A stretch of 64,000 nt of DNA from Vicinamibacterales bacterium. Lineage in GTDB: Bacteria; Acidobacteriota; Vicinamibacteria; Vicinamibacterales; UBA2999. The notes beneath the pieces are model-generated. The model ran no database searches and was not told where the DNA came from. It was given only the letters and a program-made list of their open reading frames with translations. The translations under genes and the position numbers were made by a program. Shown here piece by piece: positions 27,775-51,710 of the stretch (position 1 is its first letter; the number at the start of each line of letters is the position of its first letter). Where the stretch lies: contig DASTBV010000155.1 of assembly GCA_035711805.1 (NCBI GenBank), positions 68,659-132,658 of the forward strand, written 5' to 3'.

Positions 27775-29268
27775 TCAACGTGCGGCATATTTCTCTTCCA
27801 GGTACCGCAGATACGGTTCGGGGCTGACAGGAGAGCCGGTCACGCGCTCCACCAGCACCTGCGGCTCGAATTTCCGGCCGTGCCGATGAAGCTCGCTTCT
27901 CAACCACGACAGCAGTGCCGAGAAGTCGCCGCGGCCGATCTCCGCATCGCGCGCCGGGTGAAGCTGGCCAAACCGCTCCCACAGCTGCGCCGCAATGAGG
28001 TTTCCGAGCGTGTAGGTGGCGAAATAGCCGAACAGGCCAGCCGACCAGTGAATGTCCTGCAGCACCCCGCTGGCATCGTCCGGAGGGGTGAGCCCGAGAT
28101 ATTCCTGCATTCGCGCGTTCCACGCGTCGGGAAGATCGGACACGCGCAGCGAACCCTCGATCAGCGCGAGCTCGAGCTCGACGCGCAGCATGATGTGCAG
28201 GTTGTAGGTCGCCTCGTCGGCCTCGACGCGAATCAAGGTCGGCCGGACACGATTGATCGCGGCGTAGAACGCCGCAGCGGAGACGCTCGCCAGCTGGTCC
28301 GGACACGCCGCCTGCAGCCGCGGGAAGAAATGGTTCCAGAAGGCGCGCGAGCGCCCGACCATATTTTCCCAGAGCCGGCTCTGCGACTCGTGGACGCCAA
28401 GCGACGCTCCCCCTTCGAGCAGCGTCCGCTGGTGCTCGTCGCCGACACCCTGTTCGTACATCGCGTGCCCCGCTTCGTGCATCGTTCCGAACAGAAGGGC
28501 CAGCGGCTGCCCTTCCACCCAGCGCGTCGTAATGCGCACGTCGCTGGCGCCAATGCCGGTGGCAAACGGATGTACTGACTTGTCCTGCCGGCCGCGCGTC
28601 CAGTCGAAACCAAATGCCGTCACCACATCGACGGCGAAACGCCAGATGTCGCTCTCTGCATATCGCGCGCTGAGGAATTCAGCCGCCGGCGCAGGCCGGT
28701 CTGCAACCGACTTGATGATGGCGACCTGACGCTGACGCAGTGAATCGAAGAGCCGTTTTACGGCGGCCGTCTTCATCCCCGGCTCGTAATCGTCGAGCAG
28801 CACGTCGTACGGGTGTTCCTCCGGGGGGAAGAACGAGACATACCGTCTCTTCAGATCGATGACCGTCTGCAGGTGAGGGGCGAACGCGGCAAAATCGGAT
28901 TTGCTGCGCGCTTCCGCCCATACGTGCTGGGCCGCAGAGATCGCCGCGGCATGCTCCGCCACGAAATCAGCCGGAACCCGGGTGGCGCGCGCGTAGTCGC
29001 GCGCGACGACGGCGACCATACGGGCGGCGGTGGAGTCGGGATCGTCACCCGCCACATCGGCGCGGGCGGCGTCGAGCGCTGTGCCGACGCCGTCGGACGT
29101 GAACTTCTCGTGCGCCAGCCGGCGAAGCGCCGCGCTCATCTCGCCGTGAACGGTGACGCCGCCGGGCGGCATGTAGACCCGCTCGTCCCACTCGATCAGG
29201 TCGGCCGAGTGCCGAAGGTCCATGACTTCGGCGATCAGCGTGCGGAGTTTTTCGACGGAAGCGTGCAC
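27775..29268 (-). CDS. Carboxypeptidase M32 (Taq-type metallocarboxypeptidase)
   Basis: HEAGHAMYEQG zinc motif plus HPF and DVRITTR motifs. Confidence 0.9.
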   Translation of the reverse strand: MHASVEKLRTLIAEVMDLRHSADLIEWDERVYMPPGGVTVHGEMSAALRRLAHEKFTSDGVGTALDAARADVAGDDPDSTAARMVAVVARDYARATRVPADFVAEHAAAISAAQHVWAEARSKSDFAAFAPHLQTVIDLKRRYVSFFPPEEHPYDVLLDDYEPGMKTAAVKRLFDSLRQRQVAIIKSVADRPAPAAEFLSARYAESDIWRFAVDVVTAFGFDWTRGRQDKSVHPFATGIGASDVRITTRWVEGQPLALLFGTMHEAGHAMYEQGVGDEHQRTLLEGGASLGVHESQSRLWENMVGRSRAFWNHFFPRLQAACPDQLASVSAAAFYAAINRVRPTLIRVEADEATYNLHIMLRVELELALIEGSLRVSDLPDAWNARMQEYLGLTPPDDASGVLQDIHWSAGLFGYFATYTLGNLIAAQLWERFGQLHPARDAEIGRGDFSALLSWLRSELHRHGRKFEPQVLVERVTGSPVSPEPYLRYLEEKYAAR

Positions 29269-29271
29269 GAA

Positions 29272-30891
<1,620 letters not shown>

Positions 30892-30896
30892 TCAGG

Positions 30897-30985
30897 ATCG
30901 CCGCGCTCCCTCCGCCGGTCTGAACCGGGTCAGGTTCCAAGGGTCTGTCTCAATCCCGGTACTCCGGGATACCCCTGGCGGCCTT
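30897..30985 (-). promoter_or_regulatory. TPP (THI-box) riboswitch upstream of thiC
   Basis: The minus-strand RNA reads GGGGUAUCCCGGAGUACCGGGAUUGAGACAGACCCUUGGAACCUGACCCGGUUCAGACCGGCGGAGGGA, matching the conserved UGAGA and ACCUGA...GGGA cores. The aptamer's GGGAGC can pair with GCUCCC abutting the AUG. A TATAAT lies at 30990-30995 on the minus strand. Confidence 0.85.
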
Positions 30986-31035
30986 TGCGATTATACGTCG
31001 CTGTCCGCGACCACTCCTGACCATACAATTCCAGT

Positions 31036-31848
31036 ATGGTTATCGCATTGCTGCTCAGCTTGCTGCTGGCGCAGGCCACGACGCCTCAGAAACCGCAGCC
31101 CACGACGCCTCCGAAACCACAGCCCACGACGCCCCCGAAGGCTGCGCCTGCGCAGCCACGAACAACCCCGCGGCAGCCCGCGGGAACTCTCGCCGGGATG
31201 GCGATTACCGTGAGCGACGGCAGGGGCAATCCGTTCTCCGATGTCACCGTCGAAATGACCGGTACCGTCGAACGCAACGGGAAGACGGATGCCGCCGGAC
31301 AACTCAGCTTGCCTGGGCTGCGAGCCGGAACGTATCGACTTCGCTTCTCCGGTGACGCGGTGACCGCATTCGAACGGGAGGTCACGCTCAAAGGCGGTGA
31401 GATCGCCAAGCTGGCGATCACGCTGTCGCCCGCAGCGCCGGTCAAGGTTGCGCCGGCGCCGCCGCCCCCGGCGCCGGTGGCGCCGCCAGCACCCGCCGCC
31501 GGACCAGTGGGCCAACCGCAGCTCGGATCGTTGTCCAAGGTTGCAGATCAGTATCGGAACACGAAGGAGCGCCGCGAGGTGATCCTGTCCTGCAGCGGCA
31601 ACACGCGGAATATGCTGCTCGCACTCACCGACGAACAGCCGCAGCGGATCTACGACACCGCCGAATCGACGTTCTACGTCCTCTCCGGCCAGGGGGCGGC
31701 AATCGTCGGCAAGATCCAGAGCGTCATCTCGACCGGTTCCTTCATCGCCGTCCCGCGCGGCACCCCATTCGTCCTCGCGCGCCAGGGCAATCGCCCGCTC
31801 ATCATGCTGTGGACGTTGAGCGGCGAGCCGTGCGAGGCGTCGAAATAA
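31036..31848 (+). CDS. Secreted protein with a carboxypeptidase-regulatory-like domain and a C-terminal cupin-like domain
   Basis: Signal peptide, PQPTTPPK repeats, the GTVERNGKTDAAGQLSLPGLRAGTYRLRF motif and a cupin-like C-terminus. Confidence 0.6.
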   Translation: MVIALLLSLLLAQATTPQKPQPTTPPKPQPTTPPKAAPAQPRTTPRQPAGTLAGMAITVSDGRGNPFSDVTVEMTGTVERNGKTDAAGQLSLPGLRAGTYRLRFSGDAVTAFEREVTLKGGEIAKLAITLSPAAPVKVAPAPPPPAPVAPPAPAAGPVGQPQLGSLSKVADQYRNTKERREVILSCSGNTRNMLLALTDEQPQRIYDTAESTFYVLSGQGAAIVGKIQSVISTGSFIAVPRGTPFVLARQGNRPLIMLWTLSGEPCEASK

Positions 31849-31851
31849 GGA

Positions 31852-32331
31852 ATGGGAGCGACGGCCGATCGGCAGGGCGTGATCGTCAGCTGCCCGTCGT
31901 GCGGCCGGTCGAACCGCCTGCGCTACGACACGCTTGGCAAGACGGTGCGCTGCGGCAATTGCCGCGCGAACCTGCCGCCACTGTCGGCGCCGATTGAAAT
32001 AGCCGATTCCGCCACCTTCGATGCGGCGGCCGCGGGCAGTTCGCTGCCGCTGCTGGTCGATTTCTGGGCGCCGTGGTGCGGCCCATGTCGCATGGTCGCG
32101 CCGGAACTGGAACGCGTGGCGCGAACCAGTGCCGGCCGCTATCTGGTCGTCAAGGTCAACACGGACGTCGTCACGGACGTGGCGGCGCGATTCACCATCC
32201 GCTCCATCCCCACACTGGCGCTCGTGTTCAACGGCCGCGAGATCGATCGGGTGACCGGCGTGCGGCCGGCGTCAGAGATCGAAGCGTTCGCCGCACGCGC
32301 GCTCGCCGCCGCCACACCGCGCGCTTCCTAA
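31852..32331 (+). CDS. trxC: Thioredoxin 2 (zinc-finger N-extension)
   Basis: CPSC...CGNC zinc finger plus the WAPWCGPC active site. Confidence 0.88.
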   Translation: MGATADRQGVIVSCPSCGRSNRLRYDTLGKTVRCGNCRANLPPLSAPIEIADSATFDAAAAGSSLPLLVDFWAPWCGPCRMVAPELERVARTSAGRYLVVKVNTDVVTDVAARFTIRSIPTLALVFNGREIDRVTGVRPASEIEAFAARALAAATPRAS

Positions 32332-32351
32332 GTCCCTGGTCCTTGGGGACC

Positions 32352-32753
32352 TTACTGGAGCCGCACAACCAGCGTGGCGCGATAGTCGTCCGGCTCGATC
32401 GGCGTCGAGCTGAAGGGATACGGCTGCAGTTCCACGAGCGAAATCAGATAGCGCCCGTGTGCCACGGTCGCGCGTGACGCGTCGCCGGTGTGCAGCTCGT
32501 ACGAGGCGGTGCCGTTTCCGGCCACTCGAATCCGTACGATGGCGTCGCCTCCCTGGATACAGAGCGCGTCAGCAGGACAGCGTGAGTCACCGCTCACCCC
32601 GAGGAACTCGATCACCAGGCCGGCGCCGGAAATGCTCGTGGCTTCGCCAACGCCGATGGTGAAGGGCCTGTCGATCGGATTTATTGGACCGGCCACGGAC
32701 GCACCGCAGCCGGTCGCGATCACGAGGCAAAACAGAAAGAGAAGCGTCCGCAC
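32352..32753 (-). CDS. Small lipoprotein of unknown function
   Basis: LVIATGC lipobox. Last gene of the co-oriented envelope cluster. Confidence 0.6.
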   Translation of the reverse strand: MRTLLFLFCLVIATGCGASVAGPINPIDRPFTIGVGEATSISGAGLVIEFLGVSGDSRCPADALCIQGGDAIVRIRVAGNGTASYELHTGDASRATVAHGRYLISLVELQPYPFSSTPIEPDDYRATLVVRLQ

Positions 32754-32786
32754 GTGGACGGATAAAGCAGAGGTCGTACCACCAGG

Positions 32787-35753
32787 CTACCAGCCGGGGC
32801 GCAGCAGGAAACCGACGCGCCATCCGTTCGGCGTCCGATCCATTGGACGTGCGGCCGTCACTTCGATGACGAATCCGCCGAGGTTCGCGCGGCCGCCGAA
32901 GCCGACGCTGCGGAACCTGGCCCGGTCCGACGCGCCCGCGGGGGTCTTCGTCCACAGAGCGCCCCCGTCCGCGAACGCAATCAGCTCGATCGGTACCTGC
33001 CGTCCGTAGTCCAGCTCCCCTGTCAGGAGGCCGACGAGCGGCGCGCGCAGCTCGAGATTCATCAGCGCCAACCTGCTGCCGGCAAGCTCGTCGAGCACTG
33101 CACACGCGGTTGCTGTCCGCCCGCACGCGTCGGCGGCAAACGTCCGCAGGTCGTAGCCGCGAACGAGCGTCTGCAGTCCGACCACCAGCGGCGCGAGGCG
33201 CGGGTCCGAGGCCCCCGAACCGTAGCGGCCGACATGTTCGACGCGTGCGGCAATCGTCAGCGGACGGATCGGCATCCAATAGCGGCGGGCGTCTACCCGG
33301 ACGTCCGTGAACGGCACGCGGCCGAACGCCGGCTCGAGTTCAAGGCGAAGACGTTGACCGAGTACGGGACCCAGCGGGCCCGACACCGCGGTGTCGTAGA
33401 CGAACGCGAGCTGCGCCTCCGCCTGGTAGAGCGCCGCGTGCGCCGGCGACTCCGCGAACGTCTGATTGACGATCTCTCCGGCCGGGTCCGTGACGCGCGT
33501 CGCCGTCTGCCACGCGAATCCGGTCCTGCGCACGCCAACTCGTGCATCCAGGCGGCGCACGGCGTTGAAGTGGTAGCGCATGGCCAGGCCGCCCCATTGA
33601 TGGTCGTAGCGCAGGCTGGTTGTTTCTCTCGTCGTCGCCTCTGCGCCGCGCTCGATTGCGCGGCGCGCACCGTAGAAACGGGCAGGCGCAAAGCCGGCGG
33701 TCACGCCCCAGTTCCACCGCCCACGGCGCGTGGTGTAGGCAAACTGCGCCGCGAAGTCGTCCAGATCCGTCCCGACGCGGAACAGCGTCTGCAGCTGCCG
33801 ATCGCGCAGCAGATCTCCAAACGACGCTCCGAAGCTCGCGCGCACGAGCCCGCCAAAGGCGTTGCCCGTACCGCCGCCGATGAAGGGTTGCGCCACCGTT
33901 TCCAGACGCAGTCGATCGTCGTACGGACGCTGTGTGAACGTGTCGGCCTGCGGCAGCCCTGAGGCCGAATCCCGCAGGGCGTCCGCCACCGTCATCGGGT
34001 GCGGTGTCGCGGCGGTGACCGGCGAGACGCTGTCCGTGACAGGCGCGCATTCACCGCAGCCTTCGACGATCCGAATGCGGTACGCGCCGTTCGCGAAAGC
34101 CGTGAAGGCGACGGTTCCGCTGTCCGCCGCAACCGCCAGCGCGGGACTGGTCGCCGTGATGCCACTCACTCCCGCCTGTTCGTTCGTTACCCGCATCAGC
34201 TCACCGGTGGCCAGCGTCCGCCGGTACACGTTGCTCGTCCGCTCGTGGTCCGCGATGTAGTAGAGCGCGCTGCCATCCGGCGACCACTGCGGGTTGATCT
34301 CCTTGTCGGACAGGATCGGTGTGGCTGCCGACCGCTCGTGGAGTGGACGAACGAGTCCCGATTCCAGATTCAACAAACCGATTCGCAATGGGCCGAAGCG
34401 CAGCTCGTCGACCGACGAAGTAAAGCGATCGGTTGCGAACGCCACGGTCGCGCCGTCCGGCGACCAGGCCGGTTGCACATCCGCGTACGGGTCCGCGGTC
34501 AATTGGCGCAACGTGCGAGTTTCTACGGTGTAGATAAAGAGGTCAGAAAGCCCGCCCTTCAGTCCGGAGACGACGATCTGCGAACCATCCGGCGACCAGC
34601 TCGGGTTGAAGAGTTGGCTGACGTCCGGCAGGCGTGTCTCGTCGCGGCTGCCGTCCGCAACGTCGATGAGGACGAGCACCGCTTCTCCATCCTGAACCGC
34701 GGCCATGGCGAACCGCGCTCCCGTCGGGTCCCAGGCGCCCGCCGAGTTGATGTATTGCAGGCTGTCGAAGTGCGGATCGGCCGCCGTGCTGACGACCTTG
34801 CGTCCCTCCGCGTGGTTCGCCGTATCCGCAACGAACAGATCAATCGACAGGCGATCGCGCTCGGAGAGAAACATCACGCGGCTGCCATCCGGACTGATCG
34901 CCGGGGCGAGCTGCATGCGGCTGCGGCGTTCGCCGCCGATATCGCGCCCGGCCTCCGCGTCGGGCACCGCCTCGTCAATCGAGCCGTGCCACGCCGCCGT
35001 GATCTGCGCGGACGTTTCGCCGGTGACCTCCTCAATCCGTTTGATCGCGTCCTTCCCGCGCGTCCGCAGCACCTTGCCGAACACGCCGTCGCCGAACCGC
35101 TCCGCCAGGTGCGACCACAGCGCGTGACCGTACCGATAGGGGAAGTAGCGCGGATCGTTCAACTGTTTCAACGTGGGCAGACGGTCGTGGCCGGCGGCAT
35201 CGCGGACCCACATCGACGTGTGGGCGTTTGCCGGGCCGAGCGACAGATACTCCGCCATGCCCTCGATGAACCAGCCGGGAAAGGCAAACGCGTCCTGCTT
35301 GACGCTGCGGGCGATGTCGATCTGAAACGCGTGCGCGATCTCGTGGCCGAGCACGTGGTCCGTGTCACCCAGCCCGGGTGCGAACGGCATGGCGATCCGC
35401 GATTTGATGCGCTCGGTGAAGCCGCCCGTCCCTTCACCGATGAATCCGCCGGTCAGGTTCGTCTGCGCGAAGTGCGAATGACTGGCGTAGAGGATCAGCG
35501 GCTGACGCCGTGCGAATTTGTGCCCGAGAATTCGCGACAGCCGCGCATACCAGCGCTCCGCCATGCGCGCGGCGTGGACCGTCGCGGCCTCTTCCTCGGC
35601 GTAGTAATGGATGTCGAAATGTTCGGTCTGCAGCAGCCGGAATTCGAGACGATCGTACCGAACCTTGTTCCGACCGAAGTACTGCGCGTCGGCGTTCGTG
35701 GACGAAAGCATCGCCACGACCGCGAGAGTGATCACCGCGGACGTCCGGACCAT
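32787..35753 (-). CDS. HExxH peptidase-like domain + TolB-like beta-propeller repeats + C-terminal Omp85/surface-antigen barrel
   Basis: Signal peptide, the HEIAHAF motif with GWFIEGMAEY and repeated PD40-like SPDGS motifs. The C-terminal barrel ends in ...LLRPGW. Confidence 0.75.
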   Translation of the reverse strand: MVRTSAVITLAVVAMLSSTNADAQYFGRNKVRYDRLEFRLLQTEHFDIHYYAEEEAATVHAARMAERWYARLSRILGHKFARRQPLILYASHSHFAQTNLTGGFIGEGTGGFTERIKSRIAMPFAPGLGDTDHVLGHEIAHAFQIDIARSVKQDAFAFPGWFIEGMAEYLSLGPANAHTSMWVRDAAGHDRLPTLKQLNDPRYFPYRYGHALWSHLAERFGDGVFGKVLRTRGKDAIKRIEEVTGETSAQITAAWHGSIDEAVPDAEAGRDIGGERRSRMQLAPAISPDGSRVMFLSERDRLSIDLFVADTANHAEGRKVVSTAADPHFDSLQYINSAGAWDPTGARFAMAAVQDGEAVLVLIDVADGSRDETRLPDVSQLFNPSWSPDGSQIVVSGLKGGLSDLFIYTVETRTLRQLTADPYADVQPAWSPDGATVAFATDRFTSSVDELRFGPLRIGLLNLESGLVRPLHERSAATPILSDKEINPQWSPDGSALYYIADHERTSNVYRRTLATGELMRVTNEQAGVSGITATSPALAVAADSGTVAFTAFANGAYRIRIVEGCGECAPVTDSVSPVTAATPHPMTVADALRDSASGLPQADTFTQRPYDDRLRLETVAQPFIGGGTGNAFGGLVRASFGASFGDLLRDRQLQTLFRVGTDLDDFAAQFAYTTRRGRWNWGVTAGFAPARFYGARRAIERGAEATTRETTSLRYDHQWGGLAMRYHFNAVRRLDARVGVRRTGFAWQTATRVTDPAGEIVNQTFAESPAHAALYQAEAQLAFVYDTAVSGPLGPVLGQRLRLELEPAFGRVPFTDVRVDARRYWMPIRPLTIAARVEHVGRYGSGASDPRLAPLVVGLQTLVRGYDLRTFAADACGRTATACAVLDELAGSRLALMNLELRAPLVGLLTGELDYGRQVPIELIAFADGGALWTKTPAGASDRARFRSVGFGGRANLGGFVIEVTAARPMDRTPNGWRVGFLLRPGW

Positions 35754-35791
35754 GGCACCCCTGCAACTCGGACTGGAGGGGCGTTACTCTA

Positions 35792-37762
35792 TCAGCGTTG
35801 CGGGTCGTACACAAACGACCAGCGTGTTCCGCCGTGACGCAGCCCGGTGGCGACATCGGCACGGAAGGTTCCAGGCGCGCCCGGCAGCGCCAGACGAACG
35901 CCGACTCCCGCATCGACATCACCGCGCGCGTCATCATCGGCGCGGTCTCCAACCCGCGCCGCATCAACGAACACGGCGGCACCAGTGCGAACGATTCCGG
36001 CCGACCACCATTGCTGCGCTTCGACGGATGCGTGCCAGAACCGCCGCCCCATCTGCTCGATGCGAAGGCGGCCGTCATCCACCAGCGGGTGCGCGCGAAG
36101 CAGCGTCTCGCGCGTCTGCCCGGTGTCTCCGCCGAACCAGAGGAGCGGCGGCAGATTCGCGCTGCCGGCGGCGGCGCCGCCGCGGGCGAGATAGACGCGG
36201 CCGGTACGCGCCGCAGACGAGGCAGCGGCAATATTCACGCTGACGCGTGAAAACGACGCTGCACCAGCCCACATCTCGCCATCAGCACGGACGTTGACGC
36301 GGCTTCCGCGTGTCAGCATCTGCACCTGCGCGCCGGATCGACCGAGAGTGCCGAGGCGATCCCAATCCTCCACGCCGGCTCCGGCCGTGATCTTCACGAC
36401 CGCATTGGTCCAGGTGGACCACTCGACGAATCCGCCCGCGCGCTCCTCGTCGGGCGGTCCGGCGTCGCCGAACCGCTCGTGTTCGCCGAACCCGCCGACG
36501 CTCCAGACACCTCCCCATGGCGCTGGCGCGTCAACGGCGACGCCGAGGCGCGGCCGGCCGGGCCAGAACCGCCATTCGGCCTTCAGGCGTTCGCCTCCGC
36601 CCGTGAGCGACCCGGTCCCGGCAGCGAGCTCGCGCCGCGAGGCGGCCACCGCGCCGAGAGCAACGTAACTCCAGACATCCGCGGGAAACACCGGTCGCTC
36701 GTTCACCGTCGCGCGGAGTTCCGCCAGGCCGCCTGCCGCCGGCCGCAGCTCGAGACTGGTCGAAACCGCCGCGGGAAGCTCACCTAACCGTCGCTCGCTT
36801 CGCAGCAACAGGTTCGGCGTCACCACCGAGCCCGCCTTCACATCGACAAGCCGTTCAACCACCCGCTGGCGCGTACGGTCCAGTCCCGCCACGCTCAGCA
36901 AATCAAGCCTGGGCTCGGAAACGCGGTTCCATGCCGCCAGCGCTCCGTCGCGGTTGTTCTGAACGAACCGGCTCGTTCCCAACAACCGCCAGCCGTATGC
37001 GTCGCCGGGGTCTGTGGCAGTGGCTGCGCTGCTGAGCGCCTCGACGTCGGCCCACCGGCGCTGGAGCACCCTGACGCCGGCCAGCTCGCGCATCGCCGCC
37101 GCGCCGCTGCAGGAAAGCGCGGTCGTGAGGTGCTGTTCCGCCGCGGCGAGATCGCCCGCCTGCGCCCGCGCGACACCGGCAGCAATCAGCGCATCGCATG
37201 GTTCAGCCGACGGCAACGCGCTGACGGGCGCAGCGGTCTCGCGCTCGCGCTCACCCGGGACGACGACGGCCATCCATCGCTTCGCCGGCTGCCAGCGCCG
37301 CTCGAATTCCTCGCGGCCGACGACACGCAAGGGTGCCCGTGCGGGATCGTGAAAAACCACGGCGTCCGGTGTTCTGGCGACGATGACGATGTAGTGAAAT
37401 CGCCCGGGCCGATCCTCGATCAACGTGAGCACCGGCCGGCCGCGGCGCAATTCGGCGTCGATCGCCTCGCCGCTGCCGGCCAGTGCGGCCGCCATCCACC
37501 CGCGCGACCGCAGCTCGCTCACGAGTGCGTCGGTGCGGATGCCCGCGGCGCTGCGATCGACGAGATGGCTGAAGGACTCGGCGCTCAGCCCGCGCTCGCC
37601 CCAGTAGCGCAGCACCATCGCCGCGGCGGCGCCGCCGCAGAGCGCCTCGGATTGTGAAATGAAGGGAACGTCGAGGATGGTAAGGGGCGCTGGCTGCGCA
37701 TCCACGTGCCCAGCCAGCGCCGCAACCAGAAAGAGCGCGCGCGCCCTGTCAGTCCACTGCAA
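35792..37762 (-). CDS. C39-like (PA2778-type) cysteine peptidase domain + TPR + POTRA-like + beta-barrel fusion
   Basis: VPFISQSEALCGGAAAAMVLRYWG (Cys), FHYIVIV (His) and HDP motifs, then a TPR region. The C-terminal half looks like an Omp85/ShlB barrel. Confidence 0.7.
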   Translation of the reverse strand: MQWTDRARALFLVAALAGHVDAQPAPLTILDVPFISQSEALCGGAAAAMVLRYWGERGLSAESFSHLVDRSAAGIRTDALVSELRSRGWMAAALAGSGEAIDAELRRGRPVLTLIEDRPGRFHYIVIVARTPDAVVFHDPARAPLRVVGREEFERRWQPAKRWMAVVVPGERERETAAPVSALPSAEPCDALIAAGVARAQAGDLAAAEQHLTTALSCSGAAAMRELAGVRVLQRRWADVEALSSAATATDPGDAYGWRLLGTSRFVQNNRDGALAAWNRVSEPRLDLLSVAGLDRTRQRVVERLVDVKAGSVVTPNLLLRSERRLGELPAAVSTSLELRPAAGGLAELRATVNERPVFPADVWSYVALGAVAASRRELAAGTGSLTGGGERLKAEWRFWPGRPRLGVAVDAPAPWGGVWSVGGFGEHERFGDAGPPDEERAGGFVEWSTWTNAVVKITAGAGVEDWDRLGTLGRSGAQVQMLTRGSRVNVRADGEMWAGAASFSRVSVNIAAASSAARTGRVYLARGGAAAGSANLPPLLWFGGDTGQTRETLLRAHPLVDDGRLRIEQMGRRFWHASVEAQQWWSAGIVRTGAAVFVDAARVGDRADDDARGDVDAGVGVRLALPGAPGTFRADVATGLRHGGTRWSFVYDPQR

Positions 37763-38141
37763 CGATGATCAGGATGAGCACCAGCAGCGCGATGATGATC
37801 AGCGTCGTCGAGATGACGATGCGCGACTGGCCGCCGGCCAGCGCACCCTCAACCTGCTGCGCCTGTGCCGCCACTCGCGCCAGATCCTCGCCCTGCAGGG
37901 TCGACACCGCGCCCGTCGCCCGGCGCAGATCGATGCCGGCCCGTTCGGCGACAGCTTTAACTTCGGAGCGACCCAGCACACGCAGCACGGCCTCCCGATC
38001 GGCCGCGGTCGTGTCTACGTGCTGCCGCACGGCGGCGTCGAGCGCCGATTGCGGTGCGGCATGAGTGGTTTGCGCCTGCAGCCGGGGCGCGGCGGCAGTC
38101 ACCATCAGCAGAATTGCAACAAGTGAAACGAACAGTCGCAT
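37749..38141 (-). CDS. PA2779-like small protein with a signal peptide and a C-terminal membrane anchor
   Basis: Signal peptide, a helical Ala/Arg-rich region, ...ALAGGQSRIV, then STTLIIIALLVLILIIVAVD. It overlaps the peptidase gene by 14 nt. The family assignment is from memory. Confidence 0.55.
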   Translation of the reverse strand: MRLFVSLVAILLMVTAAAPRLQAQTTHAAPQSALDAAVRQHVDTTAADREAVLRVLGRSEVKAVAERAGIDLRRATGAVSTLQGEDLARVAAQAQQVEGALAGGQSRIVISTTLIIIALLVLILIIVAVD

Positions 38142-38195
38142 GCGTGCCCTCCTGAAATCGCATTGTAGCGGAGCCGCCGCCGTTGAGTCGCCAAT

Positions 38196-38654
38196 TTAAC
38201 GCGGCTGCGGTGCAACGTCGAACGACCGCGCCTCCTCGTTGACGGCCACTGTGAACAGACGGTCGAACCCCTCCTCGTACGCCGGTCGCTCGAGCCGTTT
38301 CCGCGCGGCGAAGATCGCGACCGCGGGAACGCGGTTCCGACCTTCGCGCGCCCGGTTGCGCCGAAGCGCGTCGGCCGCTTCCGTCGGGAAGAAATAGCCT
38401 GCAACCTCTGCGCCGTGGCGCCGCGCGATGGCGATGATCGCAGCGCGATCGGCGGCGGTGGGATTCGTGTTGTCGACCGCGACGGAACGGCCGGCGGCGA
38501 GCGCCGCGTCGATCAGCTCGTTCTGGCGGCGCTGCGGCTGCCGGTTGTGGCGCATGGCATCCTTGCTGACGTGCTCGTGTGTGCCGGCAAACCGCTCCAG
38601 ATAGAACGTCGTCTTGCCGGACGCCGGTAAGCCGATCAGGATCACGCATTCCAT
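38196..38654 (-). CDS. P-loop kinase (AAA_33 / polynucleotide-kinase-like ATP-binding protein)
   Basis: LIGLPASGKTT Walker A in a 152-aa single-domain protein. Confidence 0.7.
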   Translation of the reverse strand: MECVILIGLPASGKTTFYLERFAGTHEHVSKDAMRHNRQPQRRQNELIDAALAAGRSVAVDNTNPTAADRAAIIAIARRHGAEVAGYFFPTEAADALRRNRAREGRNRVPAVAIFAARKRLERPAYEEGFDRLFTVAVNEEARSFDVAPQPR

Positions 38655-39414
38655 GTGTATCTCAGCGCAGGACGAACGCTTTACCCGGTGGCTGGCGTCG
38701 CTCGAAACGCGTCATCTTGCCGACTTCCGGGTGGCCGAAGTCACGCGCGCCCTCCGGGCATTGTCGTCCGCATATGTACAACGCCGTCAGAAACTTGCTG
38801 CCGGCGCGGCCCTCTCCTCTGCCGGCAAGCGGGCGGCATTCGCGCTGTTTTACGGTCCGCTTCACCTGCTGACCGTCGCGCACATCGTCCGCGCCGTCGG
38901 CGGCGGCAGTCCGGCCCCGACCCAGATTGTCGATCTTGGGTGCGGTACCGGAGTCGCGGCGGCCGCCTGGGCGCTCTGTGCGGGTACGGGTCCTTCGATC
39001 CTCGGCATCGATCGTCATCCGTGGGCAGTGGAAGAAAGCCGGCGCACCTATCGGGATCTGAACCTGCGCGGGCATGCGCGTGTCGGCGATCTGAAACGCC
39101 TTCCCGCGCTCGGCTCGTCCGGCGCAGTTATCGCGGCCTATACCCTCAATGAGCTGGACGACCGTCAACGACACGGCGTGGAGATGCATCTGCTCGAGGC
39201 GGCGACTCGCGGGACGCGGCTGCTCATCGTGGAGCCGATTGCACGGGCGGTCACGCCGTGGTGGGACGAGACCGCCGCGCGCATCAAAGGCCTTGGGGGT
39301 CGGGAGGACGACTGGCGCTTTCCTGTTGACCTGCCGCCGCTGTTGCGCCTGCTCGACAAGTCGGCTGGACTCAACCATCAGGAACTGACAGCGCGAAGCC
39401 TCTATGTGGGGTGA
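38653..39414 (+). CDS. Class I SAM-dependent methyltransferase (Rsm22-like)
   Basis: IVDLGCGTGVAAAAWA motif I. An alternative start lies at 38614. Confidence 0.7.
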   Translation: MCISAQDERFTRWLASLETRHLADFRVAEVTRALRALSSAYVQRRQKLAAGAALSSAGKRAAFALFYGPLHLLTVAHIVRAVGGGSPAPTQIVDLGCGTGVAAAAWALCAGTGPSILGIDRHPWAVEESRRTYRDLNLRGHARVGDLKRLPALGSSGAVIAAYTLNELDDRQRHGVEMHLLEAATRGTRLLIVEPIARAVTPWWDETAARIKGLGGREDDWRFPVDLPPLLRLLDKSAGLNHQELTARSLYVG

Positions 39415-39441
39415 AAGGCCGGCCTGAAGGTCGGCCTTTCA
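39412..39441. repeat. REP-like palindromic element, minimal copy C (terminator between convergent genes)
   Basis: TGAAAGGCCGGCCT-GA-AGGTCGGCCTTTCA. Confidence 0.6.
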
Positions 39442-39451
39442 GGAGATCCGT

Positions 39452-40012
39452 CTATTTCATTCGGCCGCTGATCTGTTCAGCCCTTTCGAGATGCTTGGTT
39501 ACGGTCGGCAGGGTCTTGGTGGCCCACTGATTCACGGCGTTGTCCAGCCGTGAGTCGTCCGAGACACGGCCGCTCGTCCCGGTCGTCGTTGGTGTCCGGT
39601 TGGCGCGCGTCTCGACCATGCTCTTCACCTCGCGGTGACCGTCGACCATCGCTTTCATGTACTCACGATCGAACTCGGCACCGCTCAGTTTGCTGAGACG
39701 GTCGTGGAGAGCCTGATGCTTCGCATCGAGCTGTGCCGGCTCTTCCACGCCCTGACCCTTCACGGCCTCCTTCAGCGTGTTCAAGCCATTCGTGTGCTCT
39801 TTCACCATCATCTGCGCGAATGCCTTGACGTCGGCGCTCTGCGCTTTCTGACCCGCCAGCTCACCAAGCTTGACCTCGGCCTTGTTGGCGAGCATCGCCT
39901 GTTTCGCGAAGCTTTCCGCGCTGACGGCGTCGCCGGCCGGCGCCTGCCCGCTTGGCCCCGCTGCCAGCACCGCGACGCACGCGGCGGTCGCACCCCATAC
40001 ACACAATCTCAT
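39452..40012 (-). CDS. DUF4142 domain protein (secreted)
   Basis: Signal peptide and FAKQAMLANKAEVKLGELA...DVKAFAQMMVKEH repeats. GGGAGGTGA RBS before an internal ATG. Confidence 0.7.
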   Translation of the reverse strand: MRLCVWGATAACVAVLAAGPSGQAPAGDAVSAESFAKQAMLANKAEVKLGELAGQKAQSADVKAFAQMMVKEHTNGLNTLKEAVKGQGVEEPAQLDAKHQALHDRLSKLSGAEFDREYMKAMVDGHREVKSMVETRANRTPTTTGTSGRVSDDSRLDNAVNQWATKTLPTVTKHLERAEQISGRMK

Positions 40013-40085
40013 CGTCACCTCCCGGAACACATGCGGAGTCCAGGTGCAAGTGAGGTGACGTGACGACGAATCGGGATGGCGGGAA

Positions 40086-40739
40086 TCAGGCGTGAATGGC
40101 AGCGACAGCGCGGGCGTATTCGTCGGCGACACCCGGAATCGTCGAGGCCACGAAGCCGAGATCGCGAAGCAGCCCGTCCCGCAGCGAGTAGATCCAGCTG
40201 TGGACCGACAGTTCCTGGCCCCGGGTCCACGCATCGCGGACAACCGTGGTCTGGCAGACGTTGCGTGCCTGCTCGATGACGTTGAGCTCGCAGAGGCGAT
40301 CCATCGCGCGTTCGTCCGGAGTCTCCCGGCCGATGAGGTCGCCGTGCCGGTCGTGCACGTCCTGGACGTGGCGCAGCCAGTTATCGATCAATCCGAGCGA
40401 GTCGCGACGGTAGGCGGCCTGAATCCCGCCGCACCCGTAATGGCCGCAGACGATCACGTGACGCACGCGCAGCACGTCGATCGCGAACTGCAGCACGGAC
40501 AGGCAGTTCAGATCGGTGTGCACGACGACATTCGCCACGTTGCGGTGGACGAACAGCTCGCCGGGTGCGAGGCCGACGATCTCGTTGGCGGGCACACGGC
40601 TGTCCGAACAGCCGATCCACAGATACCGGGGCGTCTGTTGCTGGGACAGCTTGAGGAAGAACTCGGGCTCGCGCGACGTGATGTCGCGTGCCCAGGCGCG
40701 GTTCTGCGCAAAGAGCTCGTGAAGCGGTTGTGTGCTCAC
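40086..40739 (-). CDS. Beta-class carbonic anhydrase
   Basis: CSDSRVP and VCGHYGCGG zinc-ligand motifs. Confidence 0.9.
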   Translation of the reverse strand: MSTQPLHELFAQNRAWARDITSREPEFFLKLSQQQTPRYLWIGCSDSRVPANEIVGLAPGELFVHRNVANVVVHTDLNCLSVLQFAIDVLRVRHVIVCGHYGCGGIQAAYRRDSLGLIDNWLRHVQDVHDRHGDLIGRETPDERAMDRLCELNVIEQARNVCQTTVVRDAWTRGQELSVHSWIYSLRDGLLRDLGFVASTIPGVADEYARAVAAIHA

Positions 40740-41194
40740 GGTTTCAACAGGCTGCGGAGTTGTTCGAGATGGTGGCGAAGGTGCCTGACGTAGTCTTCCA
40801 TCAGAAAGCCCAGAGTCACTACATTGCCGTCAGGACCCTGGCCGGAGCTGGAAAGCGCTTCCACAGGCGTCGTCGCGATGACGTGGGCCAGGTGCCGGTT
40901 ATACGCCGACCAGAGCGCGACGATGTCCCGGAATGGAACCTGCGCGTAGCGCTGCCGCCCGACCCAGTCGTCCTGGTTGTATCCCTGAAAAACCACTGGG
41001 GACGCGTCCCGCCCGATGACGAAGCGCCGGTGGTTGTTGCAGGCGGAGTCGACGAGGTGGCCGAGAACTTCCCGGGCACACCAGCCGCCCTCCCGAGGCC
41101 GCTCCGATGTCCTCGTTTCGTCCGCACGCTGAAACAATTCGAGGCCGTCTCGTATGGCGGCGTGCAGATCGGCGGCGATGGCTGCGGGCGTCAT
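40736..41194 (-). CDS. DinB-family protein
   Basis: Four-helix DinB_2-like pattern with conserved His residues (EVLGHL, YVRHLRHH). Confidence 0.75.
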   Translation of the reverse strand: MTPAAIAADLHAAIRDGLELFQRADETRTSERPREGGWCAREVLGHLVDSACNNHRRFVIGRDASPVVFQGYNQDDWVGRQRYAQVPFRDIVALWSAYNRHLAHVIATTPVEALSSSGQGPDGNVVTLGFLMEDYVRHLRHHLEQLRSLLKP

Positions 41195-41335
41195 GGCGGT
41201 AGAAACAGGCCGGAAACTTGCGTTCGAGCCGTCACATGATACAAATTGCCGGTATTCGGTAGTTCTTTTGTAGTATCTGATCGTTTCGGGTCTGCCCGCG
41301 GGGGGCCTCAGGTTGCGCTTCGGAAAGGAGCCACG

Positions 41336-41791
41336 ATGCGGATTGTGTCCAGTTCAATAGTTTTGGCGGCGTTTGTTCTCGCCAGTGCCAGCACCGTCGT
41401 CATCGCGCAGGGCGGCAAGCCGGTGACGGTCGAGCAGCACGCCGCCACGATGAAGATCGTTCAACAGAACATGGGGGCGGCGAACAAGGCGCTGAAGGGC
41501 GGCGATGCAGCAGCCGCGGCGCCGGCCGCCGAGGCGCTTGTCGCGGCGTTCACGACGATCGAAATGTTTTATACCCAGCGGAACAAGCCCGATGCCATCA
41601 AACTGGCGCAGACCGCAAAGACCGGCGCCCAGGACGTTGTCGCGGCGCTCAAGGCCGGCGACACGATGAAGGCGCAGATGTCGCTCGGAAACACCCAGGG
41701 CACCTGCAAGCAGTGCCACGGGATGTATCGCGAAGGCGACGCACAGACCGGCTACAAGTTCAACGCCGCGTCCGGCATCACCCCTCCGTAA
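41336..41791 (+). CDS. Class II cytochrome c (cytochrome c'/c556-like)
   Basis: Signal peptide, helical body and a C-terminal CKQCH haem motif. AAAGGAG RBS. Confidence 0.75.
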   Translation: MRIVSSSIVLAAFVLASASTVVIAQGGKPVTVEQHAATMKIVQQNMGAANKALKGGDAAAAAPAAEALVAAFTTIEMFYTQRNKPDAIKLAQTAKTGAQDVVAALKAGDTMKAQMSLGNTQGTCKQCHGMYREGDAQTGYKFNAASGITPP

Positions 41792-41810
41792 GCGTTCACC
41801 CGGGTCACCG

Positions 41811-43262
41811 GTGGCGGATGTACGTCCGCTACCGGTGCTCCATTCTTGCCGTCCGGACGAGTGGGCCGTGCCGGAGTTTCACGCCGAACCGTATCTCCAC
41901 CTTGCCAGCCTCTCCGACACCTCCGCGCTGATCGCCTGGGGCGCGTTCTATTTCAAGACGCGTTCGAACGGCGAGTGGAAGCTCGTCGACGATCACGATC
42001 TCCGCTACGTTCATCCGCCACGGCGCGACAGCATCGGCGCGCGCTCGGCGCCGTACGGCCCGGCCCAGGTCAATGTCTACGCGCTCGACGGAACGCTTGC
42101 CGCAACCGCGAGCACCGACACCACGAACTTCTGCTGGATCACCGGTCTTCAACCTGACACCCGTTACCGATACGAAGTCATCGTCAAAGGCGAGCGCTGG
42201 GGACACGAGGAACGGTGGGACTGGTCGCACACCGACGTCGAAGGCCTGGTGCAGCGCGGCGGACGTTACGTCAACGAATTCCGCACCTTTCCCGATTCGA
42301 AACAGCCGCTCGACGCGCCAGTGACGTTCATCGTGCTCGGCGACTACGGCACCGGCATCCGGCGATCGACGCCGAAGCGGCGTCAGCGCGAAATCGCGCT
42401 TGCCATGCAGGCCGTGTTCGACCGGCACGACGTTCGCTTCATCATCACCGCGGGCGACAACATCTACGCCGGGACGCGCATCCTCGGGCTGCCGCTCGGG
42501 ACGAGCACGGGCGACGAGGACGACGACTGGTTCTTCACGTTCTTCCAGCCCTACCGCTACCTCGTGAACCGGGTTCCCGTCTATCCCTGCATCGGCAACC
42601 ACGATACGGCGGAAACAGAAGATCGCGATGACCGCGAGCAGGTGCTCGACAACCTCTACCTGCGCGAGCGGTTCGCGGCTGATGCACAGTCGGGCCGGGC
42701 CTCGCTCGATCCGGGACTCTTCTACCGGTTCCACTATGGGCGCGACCTCGAGTTCCTGTGCCTGGACACGTCCAAGGAGCACTTCTTCCGCGGCAAGCGT
42801 CTCTTCGAATATCCGAAACATCGCGAGTGGCTCGAACGGGCGATGGCATCCGACGAAAGAACGCGTTGGCGCATCGCGTTCTGCCATCACCCGCCTTATT
42901 GCGCCGGGCCGAAACACGGAAATACCGACCGCATGGATCAGTTGATTCCCCTGTTTGCCAGCGGCGGTGTGCGGGCGGTCTTCAGCGGGCACGAGCACAA
43001 TTTCCAGCACTCCTCTCACGGCGGCATCGACTACTTCGTGACGGGCGCCGGAAGCAAAGTCCGCAAAGGCTCACCAGACAAGTTCGAGGAAGCGCATACG
43101 CGAAGCTGGTCGGACCATGCGCATTTCCTTCTCGTCACCGTCGACTACTCCATGCTGCGTGTCGATCCGATCGGCGAGCTCATCGACGGCAACATCCAGC
43201 CGCTGCCACGATTCGATCGCCATGGCTTGCCGGTCACGGATGGAATCGTCGTCGAACGATGA
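41811..43262 (+). CDS. Metallophosphoesterase (purple-acid-phosphatase-like)
   Basis: GDYGTG, GDNIY, GNHD and GHEHNFQH motifs. Confidence 0.8.
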   Translation: MADVRPLPVLHSCRPDEWAVPEFHAEPYLHLASLSDTSALIAWGAFYFKTRSNGEWKLVDDHDLRYVHPPRRDSIGARSAPYGPAQVNVYALDGTLAATASTDTTNFCWITGLQPDTRYRYEVIVKGERWGHEERWDWSHTDVEGLVQRGGRYVNEFRTFPDSKQPLDAPVTFIVLGDYGTGIRRSTPKRRQREIALAMQAVFDRHDVRFIITAGDNIYAGTRILGLPLGTSTGDEDDDWFFTFFQPYRYLVNRVPVYPCIGNHDTAETEDRDDREQVLDNLYLRERFAADAQSGRASLDPGLFYRFHYGRDLEFLCLDTSKEHFFRGKRLFEYPKHREWLERAMASDERTRWRIAFCHHPPYCAGPKHGNTDRMDQLIPLFASGGVRAVFSGHEHNFQHSSHGGIDYFVTGAGSKVRKGSPDKFEEAHTRSWSDHAHFLLVTVDYSMLRVDPIGELIDGNIQPLPRFDRHGLPVTDGIVVER

Positions 43263-51635: not shown

Positions 51636-51710
51636 GCCGGTATCGTCTAGGGGTTAGGACGGGTGGTTCTCAGCCATCAAACCGGGGTTCGAATCCCCGT
51701 ACCGGTACCA
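51636..51710 (+). tRNA. tRNA-Glu: tRNA-Glu (anticodon CUC), CCA encoded
   Basis: Hand-folded cloverleaf with a 7-bp acceptor (GCCGGTA/TACCGGT), a D stem GTCT/GGAC and an anticodon stem GGTGG/CCATC. The anticodon loop is TTCTCAG and the T arm is CGGGG-TTCGAAT-CCCCG, followed by A-CCA. Confidence 0.9.

Follow-up and report, generated by a model that had tools for sequence, protein, structure and literature searches.

Omp85 proteins are the main machinery for building the outer membrane and for two-partner secretion. The locus examined here raises the question of what a cysteine peptidase does when it is built into such a protein and encoded directly beside a small membrane-anchored one. It lies in a 64,000-nucleotide (nt) stretch of DNA from a Vicinamibacterales bacterium (Acidobacteriota; GenBank assembly GCA_035711805.1, contig DASTBV010000155.1, positions 68,659 to 132,658 of the forward strand), referred to below as the window; coordinates are window positions and lie on the minus strand unless stated otherwise. 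Two genes carry the argument: one with a TTG start encoding a 656-amino acid (aa) protein that joins a C39 peptidase to an Omp85 barrel (open reading frame (ORF) 35792-37762) and, immediately upstream, one encoding a 130-aa PA2779-like protein, the partner (37749-38141). We are highly confident that the former is an outer-membrane Omp85 protein whose C39 peptidase looks active, and that it forms an obligate pair with a protein of the PA2779 family. That the peptidase cleaves this partner after G104, freeing it from its anchor, is a further proposal drawn from sequence features, and we place its chances slightly below even.

The 656-aa protein is composed, in order, of a signal peptide, a C39 peptidase, a TPR region, a single POTRA and an Omp85 barrel. 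The papain-like C39 cysteine peptidase domain (residues ~30-170; 37253..37675) includes Q37, C42, H123 and D139. Residues 30-158 match the papain-like C39/C70 group of Pfam, in all cases above the gathering score (Peptidase_C39, 31.1 bits against 22; C39_2, 33.1 against 24; C70, 32.5 against 19), and are followed by the TPR region (residues ~187-283; 36914..37204), which gives weak TPR_2 and TPR_19 matches. Next come the POTRA-like domain (residues ~284-356; 36695..36913) and the Omp85-type beta-barrel (residues ~377-656; 35795..36634). None of the Pfam or NCBIfam family models covers the C-terminal 370 residues; the Pfam Omp85 model PF01103 gives no match, and NCBIfam Omp85_fam matches only weakly (19-23 bits against 200) in two of ten relatives. 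An AlphaFold2 (AF2) model built on 78 homologues (predicted local distance difference test score (pLDDT) 82, predicted template-modelling score 0.71) contains, after the signal peptide, a papain-like part (39-169), six TPR helices (189-281) and a barrel of ~15-16 strands (378-653). Its POTRA has a beta-alpha-alpha-beta-beta succession (E285-292, H299-306, H316-327, E332-342, E346-355). When this model was compared with the PDB using Foldseek, the top matches were TamA, BamA and FhaC (E 2.7e-13 to 1e-10, probability 1.0), the TamA and BamA alignments spanning 420-480 columns that correspond to POTRA plus barrel, and the best 50 matches were all Omp85 proteins.

The family profile, made from 103 diverse members with a mean identity of 36%, matches the double-glycine peptidase domains of ComA (7.6e-9), LahT150 (9.6e-6) and PCAT1 (1.2e-5), consensus TPR proteins, the TamA barrel (4.1e-5) and the POTRA region of BamA from Fusobacterium nucleatum (2.2e-4). 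The catalytic set is maintained across these members, with Q37, H123 and D139 present in 103 of 103 and C42 in 102. Read from the sequence, H123 and D139 are 16 residues apart, the same His-Asp spacing as in the peptidases of peptidase-containing ATP-binding cassette (ABC) transporters (PCATs). Two cysteines of the TPR region, C189 and C218, are each kept in at least 90% of the members and may form a disulfide, which would fit an oxidising, extracytoplasmic (periplasmic) location. Within the barrel, R556 in a long loop and D600 in a late strand are invariant (103/103). This strand has the sequence FVDAA, F598 being kept in at least 90% of members, and occupies the position of the [F/G]xDxG motif in divergent form; an Arg/Asp pair is retained at the Omp85 motif positions, and pLDDT is low at residues 546-559. 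No patatin match was obtained for the N-terminal part (Pfam, NCBIfam) and no ABC transmembrane or ATPase domain was detected (Pfam, Foldseek). Residues 29-265 align to nearly the entire NCBIfam PA2778 model (NF033920), but the score of 54.8 bits, like those of ten diverse relatives (37-81 bits), stays below the cut-off of 150, and the family is therefore regarded as a branch separate from PA2778.

The partner begins with a signal peptide (residues 1-24) and continues with some 80 aa in the periplasm, a Gly-Gly pair, a C-terminal transmembrane helix and a terminal Asp; its C-terminal end reads LAGG-QSRIVISTTLIIIALLVLILIIVAV-D, followed by the stop codon. It scores 31.7 bits (E 1.4e-7) with the NCBIfam subfamily model PA2779_fam (NF033919), under the cut-off of 40, and 12.2 bits with Pfam DUF6627 (cut-off 27). 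Since nine of ten diverse orthologues score 40.7-46.6 bits with NF033919, the orthologues taken together belong to the PA2779/DUF6627 family; the DUF6627 score is borderline in the orthologues, the Pfam cut-off being reached by one of seven. A homologue search with the 130-aa sequence returned close relatives only and no named PA2779 protein.

The most conserved part of the partner precedes its anchor. G103-G104, the proposed double-glycine cleavage site (codons at 37830..37835), is Gly-Gly in 82 of 82 partners. In an alignment of 79 of these 82 proteins, only four positions (R49, G69, G103 and G104) are 100% conserved; motif counts draw on all 82. Ala occurs at -3 in 87% and Leu at -4 in 94%. 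Positions -8, -11, -15 and -18 are hydrophobic and fall on one face, so that the segment before the Gly-Gly is read as an amphipathic helix. Between 0 and 7 residues then lead to a tail of 17-25 hydrophobic residues (37755-37820 in the window), which ends with 0-1 polar residues. A six-frame translation of the window contains no second tail of this kind, in which Gly-Gly is followed by a transmembrane helix. The leaders bound by C39 peptidases are amphipathic helices that have a hydrophobic residue at -4, and the cut is made after Gly-Gly (PMC5557850). Since the pair of glycines is invariant in a protein always encoded beside a C39 enzyme whose catalytic residues are all in place, it is most simply read as a cleavage site.

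The obligatory nature of the pairing is based on a comparison of gene neighbourhoods, in which twelve window proteins were searched by tblastn against 81 related loci and adjacency was counted only in loci holding sufficient flanking DNA. The PA2779-like gene lies directly upstream of the peptidase-barrel gene in all 81 loci, down to 38% identity. Unsupervised ORF clustering of the 40 most distant loci revealed no other universally conserved neighbour of the pair. The two proteins were not found fused to one another among 150 representatives, and a tblastn search of plasmids with the C39-TPR part gave zero matches. Relatives of the 656-aa protein are encoded in 386 species-representative genomes, the best 80 of which are Vicinamibacterales/Acidobacteriota bins except for three labelled otherwise. 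Among representatives clustered at 50% identity, 1879 clusters match at E <= 1e-3 and at least 430 at E <= 1e-30; of the top 150, most are near full length at 34-55% identity and about one fifth are shorter fragments. The family is common in Vicinamibacterales, a lineage represented here almost wholly by environmental metagenome-assembled genomes.

How could such a pair work? In the mechanism that we propose, the partner would be exported by the Sec pathway and anchored in the inner membrane by its C-terminal helix, which would leave about 80 residues in the periplasm. The Omp85 barrel and POTRA of the 656-aa protein would reside in the outer membrane, with the TPR region and the C39 domain on the periplasmic side. 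The TPR/peptidase part would bind the partner at the amphipathic helix terminating in L-A-G-G, and Cys42 and His123 would cut after the invariant Gly-Gly, directly before the membrane anchor. The periplasmic domain would in this way be freed from its hydrophobic tail, and one product might be passed to the POTRA and barrel; that these then export or insert a product appears distinctly unlikely.

The N-terminal domains of Omp85 proteins, POTRA included, are periplasmic, and by analogy we infer the same location for the peptidase. To our knowledge, PlpD is the only enzyme-Omp85 fusion to have been studied in detail. Its N-terminal enzyme domain stays in the periplasm (PMC11116518). FapD offers a second parallel: this C39 peptidase is exported by Sec and works in the periplasm, and secretion through an outer-membrane barrel depends on its catalytic Cys (PMC5557850). 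Enzyme and proposed Gly-Gly site would then share a compartment, since the mature N-terminal region of the partner also faces the periplasm.

Several known systems resemble parts of this arrangement. With the PA2778/PA2779 pair (NF033920/NF033919; DUF6627) it shares nearly whole-length alignments to both models, including the hydrophobic C-terminus of PA2779, and the adjacency of the two genes. Adjacency to a PA2779-family gene is what we take to be the defining trait of the PA2778 family. Compared with PA2778, the 656-aa protein has ~370 extra residues, which form the POTRA and Omp85 barrel. PlpD and other type Vd proteins have the same order of enzyme, single POTRA and Omp85 barrel, the scaffold anchoring a periplasmic enzyme (PMC11116518, PMC4104836); here, however, the enzyme is a C39 peptidase with TPR and not a patatin lipase, it is accompanied by a dedicated small partner gene, and the lineage is Vicinamibacterales. 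In the Fap system, the outer-membrane barrel FapF depends for its function on the catalytic Cys of FapD, a periplasmic C39 peptidase exported by Sec, and the Fap proteins themselves are suspected to carry GG/GA sites (PMC5557850). FapD and FapF are nevertheless separate proteins, and FapF forms a trimeric barrel of 12 strands that does not belong to the Omp85 proteins. Beside the present pair, the 40 most distant loci show neither amyloid subunit genes nor any other universally conserved gene.

In the PCATs (ComA, PCAT1, LahT), too, a C39 domain is joined to a membrane transporter; it is homologous to the one described here and has an identical catalytic set, and the gene for the GG-bearing substrate is adjacent. 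They differ in that their transporter is an inner-membrane ABC exporter in place of an outer-membrane Omp85 barrel, and in the position of the Gly-Gly, which follows a short N-terminal leader in their substrates and lies near the C-terminus, before a transmembrane helix, in the present putative substrate, which moreover uses Sec. A PCAT-like logic may be imagined at the outer membrane, where the Gly-Gly-plus-transmembrane tail would hold the Sec-exported partner at the inner membrane until a peptidase-containing Omp85 transporter cuts after Gly-Gly and translocates or inserts one of the products through its POTRA and barrel. We would give this complete scheme only a small chance.

A number of observations weigh against cleavage of the partner, or against parts of the reading on which it is built. 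The loop of the 656-aa barrel reads LLRAHP and not the canonical VRG[F/Y], and for lack of this motif a transport function of the barrel is uncertain. Neither the partner nor the peptidase of the window itself reaches its NCBIfam cut-off. The partner fits the classical leader consensus only approximately, since its acidic residue stands at -7 and its hydrophobic one at -8, where the consensus has E(-8) L(-7), and the Gly-Gly at the junction of helix and membrane segment could be a purely structural hinge. A peptidase tethered to the outer membrane would also have to reach a site at the surface of the inner membrane. Finally, seen from the side of the 988-aa protein encoded directly downstream in the window (32787-35753), the pair lies directly upstream in two of three sampled orthologues, and a lineage-specific functional link between the pair and this gene is still conceivable.

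It is possible, with a chance that we consider low and well short of even, that the partner is not a substrate at all: it may be a regulator, an inhibitor or an inner-membrane tether of the TamA-TamB kind, and the peptidase may act on other envelope proteins, for example on stalled or misfolded outer-membrane proteins as BepA does at BAM. TamA is indeed the top structural match of the 656-aa model. The presence of a TPR-bearing protease at a periplasmic Omp85 machine also recalls BepA-BAM, although BepA, an M48 zinc protease, is soluble and docks on BamA, and the cysteine peptidase described here is covalently joined to its own barrel. The transmembrane helix of the partner is unusually conserved (T113 in 94%, I116 in 95%, L119 in 96%), which suggests specific helix contacts and not a disposable anchor, and the strict pairing would suit any obligate partner, substrate or otherwise. 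Such a role, however, leaves unexplained why the top-conserved feature of the partner is a Gly-Gly with Leu at -4, encoded beside a double-glycine peptidase, and the ~80 periplasmic residues of the partner are far below the size of a TamB-type bridge.

A wider grouping had been put forward in the preliminary description, which saw in the pair and three co-oriented genes around it a single outer-membrane proteolysis, processing or export module with two cooperating protease-barrel fusions. The three additional genes encode a P-loop kinase (38196-38654, 152 aa), the 988-aa HExxH-TolB-Omp85 fusion and a putative lipoprotein (32352-32753, 133 aa). All five were recovered in the ORF listing exactly as first described, including the 14-nt overlap of the partner and 656-aa genes (37749-37762, for the longest-ORF start), and this tight packing, with the other gaps measuring 54, 38 and 33 nt, speaks for a module. 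The domain calls were borne out as well: both fusions of a protease domain with an Omp85 barrel are supported, their catalytic residues are conserved and the peptidase reading of their N-terminal domains is not refuted, and NCBIfam alignments together with the 81/81 pairing uphold the PA2778/PA2779-type relation of the peptidase and the small anchored protein. None of the five is a chance ORF, since each of the three proteins searched has more than 1000 homologues and the remaining two recur in related loci (tblastn). Their G+C content (66-70%) is similar to that of the remaining window, and a nearly identical locus, whose proteins are 94-99% identical, is found in a metagenome-assembled genome of Vicinamibacterales, placing the organism in the Acidobacteriota.

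The module itself did not withstand the comparison of neighbourhoods, since only the PA2779-like and C39-barrel genes are conserved together, and we consider it very unlikely. The relevant reference is a syntenic block delimited by the marker genes thiC and DinB. The 988-aa gene is adjacent to the pair in 16 of 37 loci of this block, which together with the two of three orthologues mentioned above would favour a common unit; it is however missing in the other 21, and outside the block it occurs in one of 35 loci. That single locus (L021) is on a contig too short to include the block markers and probably comes from the block. The kinase (15 of 40 block loci, none of 34 others) and the lipoprotein (21 of 37, none of 35 others) are both restricted to the block, in which 11 loci have the 988-aa gene only, 14 the lipoprotein only, four both and four neither. 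In the third locus sampled from the 988-aa side (L083) the partner is gone and the peptidase-barrel gene is reduced to a 96-aa C-terminal remnant (L083:7584-7952, plus strand; 57% identical to residues 534-654), with the 988-aa gene intact downstream. From these counts and from L083 we take the conserved unit to be the two-gene pair and the 988-aa gene to be a lineage-specific, separable neighbour.

Long-range synteny is observed within one Vicinamibacterales subclade, in which window positions 28000-43000 correspond to loci L001-L041 and L082-L083. The order is DinB, carbonic anhydrase, DUF4142, methyltransferase, [kinase], pair, [WD40-Omp85], [lipoprotein], [thioredoxin], CarboxypepD_reg/cupin and thiC. 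Adjacency inside the subclade is, on account of this synteny, weak evidence of functional linkage. The kinase belongs to the polynucleotide-kinase-like P-loop type (Pfam AAA_33, 3.6e-17; PNK-like matches in NCBIfam) and is cytoplasmic, its sequence being without a visible signal peptide, which also speaks against its membership of an outer-membrane module. The 133-aa protein has a signal peptide and an ATGC lipobox, read from the sequence, and zero relatives in Pfam, NCBIfam or PDB sequences. Both are lineage-restricted bystanders. A promoter scan found zero sigma-70-like sites; seven terminator-like matches compare with a shuffled expectation of 4.3 (standard deviation 2.1), a number not clearly higher, and an internal terminator is therefore neither shown nor excluded.

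Among the 40 most distant loci, 14 have a PilT/T2SSE-type ATPase gene (~380 aa, Pfam T2SSE 7.9e-45; for example L054:7192-8340, plus strand) on the same strand as the pair, starting a median of ~1.2 kb (range ~0.5-4 kb) upstream of the PA2779-like gene. The pair may have a lineage-specific association with a pilus or secretion ATPase. Elsewhere in the window, a thiamine pyrophosphate (TPP) riboswitch (30889-30986; Rfam RF00059, 63 bits, gathering score 54.3) sits immediately upstream of thiC (29272-30852), which is the usual arrangement, and a tRNA gene is found at 51636-51707 on the plus strand (Rfam RF00005, 55.7 bits).

The 988-aa neighbour is itself a protease-barrel fusion, with a gluzincin HExxH domain (residues ~36-262), a TolB-type propeller (~270-565) and an Omp85 barrel (~636-988). 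The propeller is detected by Pfam PD40 (2.8e-20) and NCBIfam TolB TIGR02800 (3.4e-31); the peptidase part has weak but mutually consistent MA-clan matches (BSP, 2.2e-4; flagellinolysin, 3.3e-4) and no PDB sequence matches over the HExxH domain. H137-E138-x-x-H141 and W161-x-I-E164-G-M-A, within the stretch W-F-I-E164-G-M-A-E-Y, are invariant in the alignment, and the gluzincin pattern of M1 aminopeptidases is likewise HExxH followed by WLxEGxA. The AF2 model (pLDDT 79.5) places a helical domain at 38-257, the propeller at 270-563 and barrel strands at 638-986. Foldseek with the full model returned TolB (~6e-11), and the best 50 matches were to the propeller only, so that the barrel and the HExxH domain are supported by Pfam matches of orthologues, by motifs and by the literature. 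PF01103 does not match the protein of the window itself; six orthologues (~60% identity) pass the Pfam Omp85 threshold (25.2-28.7 bits against 24). The canonical motifs are kept in the barrel as VRGY (864-867) and F-A-D-G-G (927-931; F927/D929/G931), with VRGY, D929 and G931 invariant. Further PD40/TolB-repeat coding regions occur in the window on the plus strand (~58683-59288 and 61531-62040), which the 988-aa propeller matches weakly, at 23-33% identity.

This architecture corresponds to the WD40-like Omp85 proteins, whose members in a 2014 study reportedly span several phyla. On its sequence features, the 988-aa protein is an additional member of that known subfamily, with an architecture already described, the same succession of HExxH domain, TolB propeller and barrel with nothing essential different. 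Heinz and Lithgow listed WD40-like Omp85 as one of ten Omp85/TpsB subfamilies, with structural matches to BamA/TamA, TolB and M1 aminopeptidase in the supplementary table, and none of the ten contains a C39 or TPR fusion (PMC4104836). The catalogued members come from several other genera (PMC4104836), which may count further against the five-gene module. The VRGY and FxDxG motifs set the 988-aa protein apart from the C39 fusion. Profile-profile comparison of the two barrels gave a probability of 5% over one C-terminal stretch of 74 columns, so that close paralogy of the barrels is unsupported.

The order of passenger, one POTRA and Omp85 barrel, as in PlpD-type proteins, might also indicate a type Vd-like autotransporter, in which the POTRA-barrel would move the C39-TPR passenger to the cell surface where it would cleave external or neighbouring-cell proteins. 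This we find hard to believe: the passenger of PlpD itself remains periplasmic (PMC11116518), the obligatory partner is anchored in the inner membrane and faces the periplasm, and the barrel would have difficulty in passing a folded passenger of ~250 residues that contains a conserved pair of Cys. A toxin/immunity-type pair, hinted at by a transposon-directed insertion sequencing (TraDIS) screen of the Pseudomonas type VI secretion system that listed PA2778, unvalidated, as a candidate toxin beside a small protective ORF (bioRxiv 10.1101/733030), has next to no chance, because the Sec signal peptides of both proteins and the fixation of the peptidase to an integral outer-membrane barrel are incompatible with delivery as a type VI effector, and type VI secretion genes are absent among the conserved neighbours of the 40 most distant loci.

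What is new at this locus is the pair, of PA2778/PA2779 type, in which a POTRA and an Omp85 barrel have been added to the peptidase. As for the suggestion of an undescribed outer-membrane module, the literature on C39 with Omp85 yielded no description of a C39-TPR-POTRA-Omp85 architecture, and that on PA2778/PA2779, DUF6627 and the NCBIfam accessions no functional study; for the 988-aa fusion it does not stand, this architecture having been catalogued in 2014 (PMC4104836). Enzyme-Omp85 fusions in general are no longer surprising, and the work on PlpD illustrates the reuse of the Omp85 scaffold for anchoring periplasmic enzymes (PMC11116518). Should the complete PCAT-like scheme nevertheless prove true, it would represent a new type V-like secretion branch, a new Omp85 subfamily and a new class of C-terminal sorting signal. 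The conserved Gly-Gly of the partner provides a concrete candidate substrate and cleavage site, and with it two uncharacterised families, the PA2778-type peptidases and the PA2779/DUF6627 proteins, the latter of which occur in Pseudomonas aeruginosa too, become directly testable.

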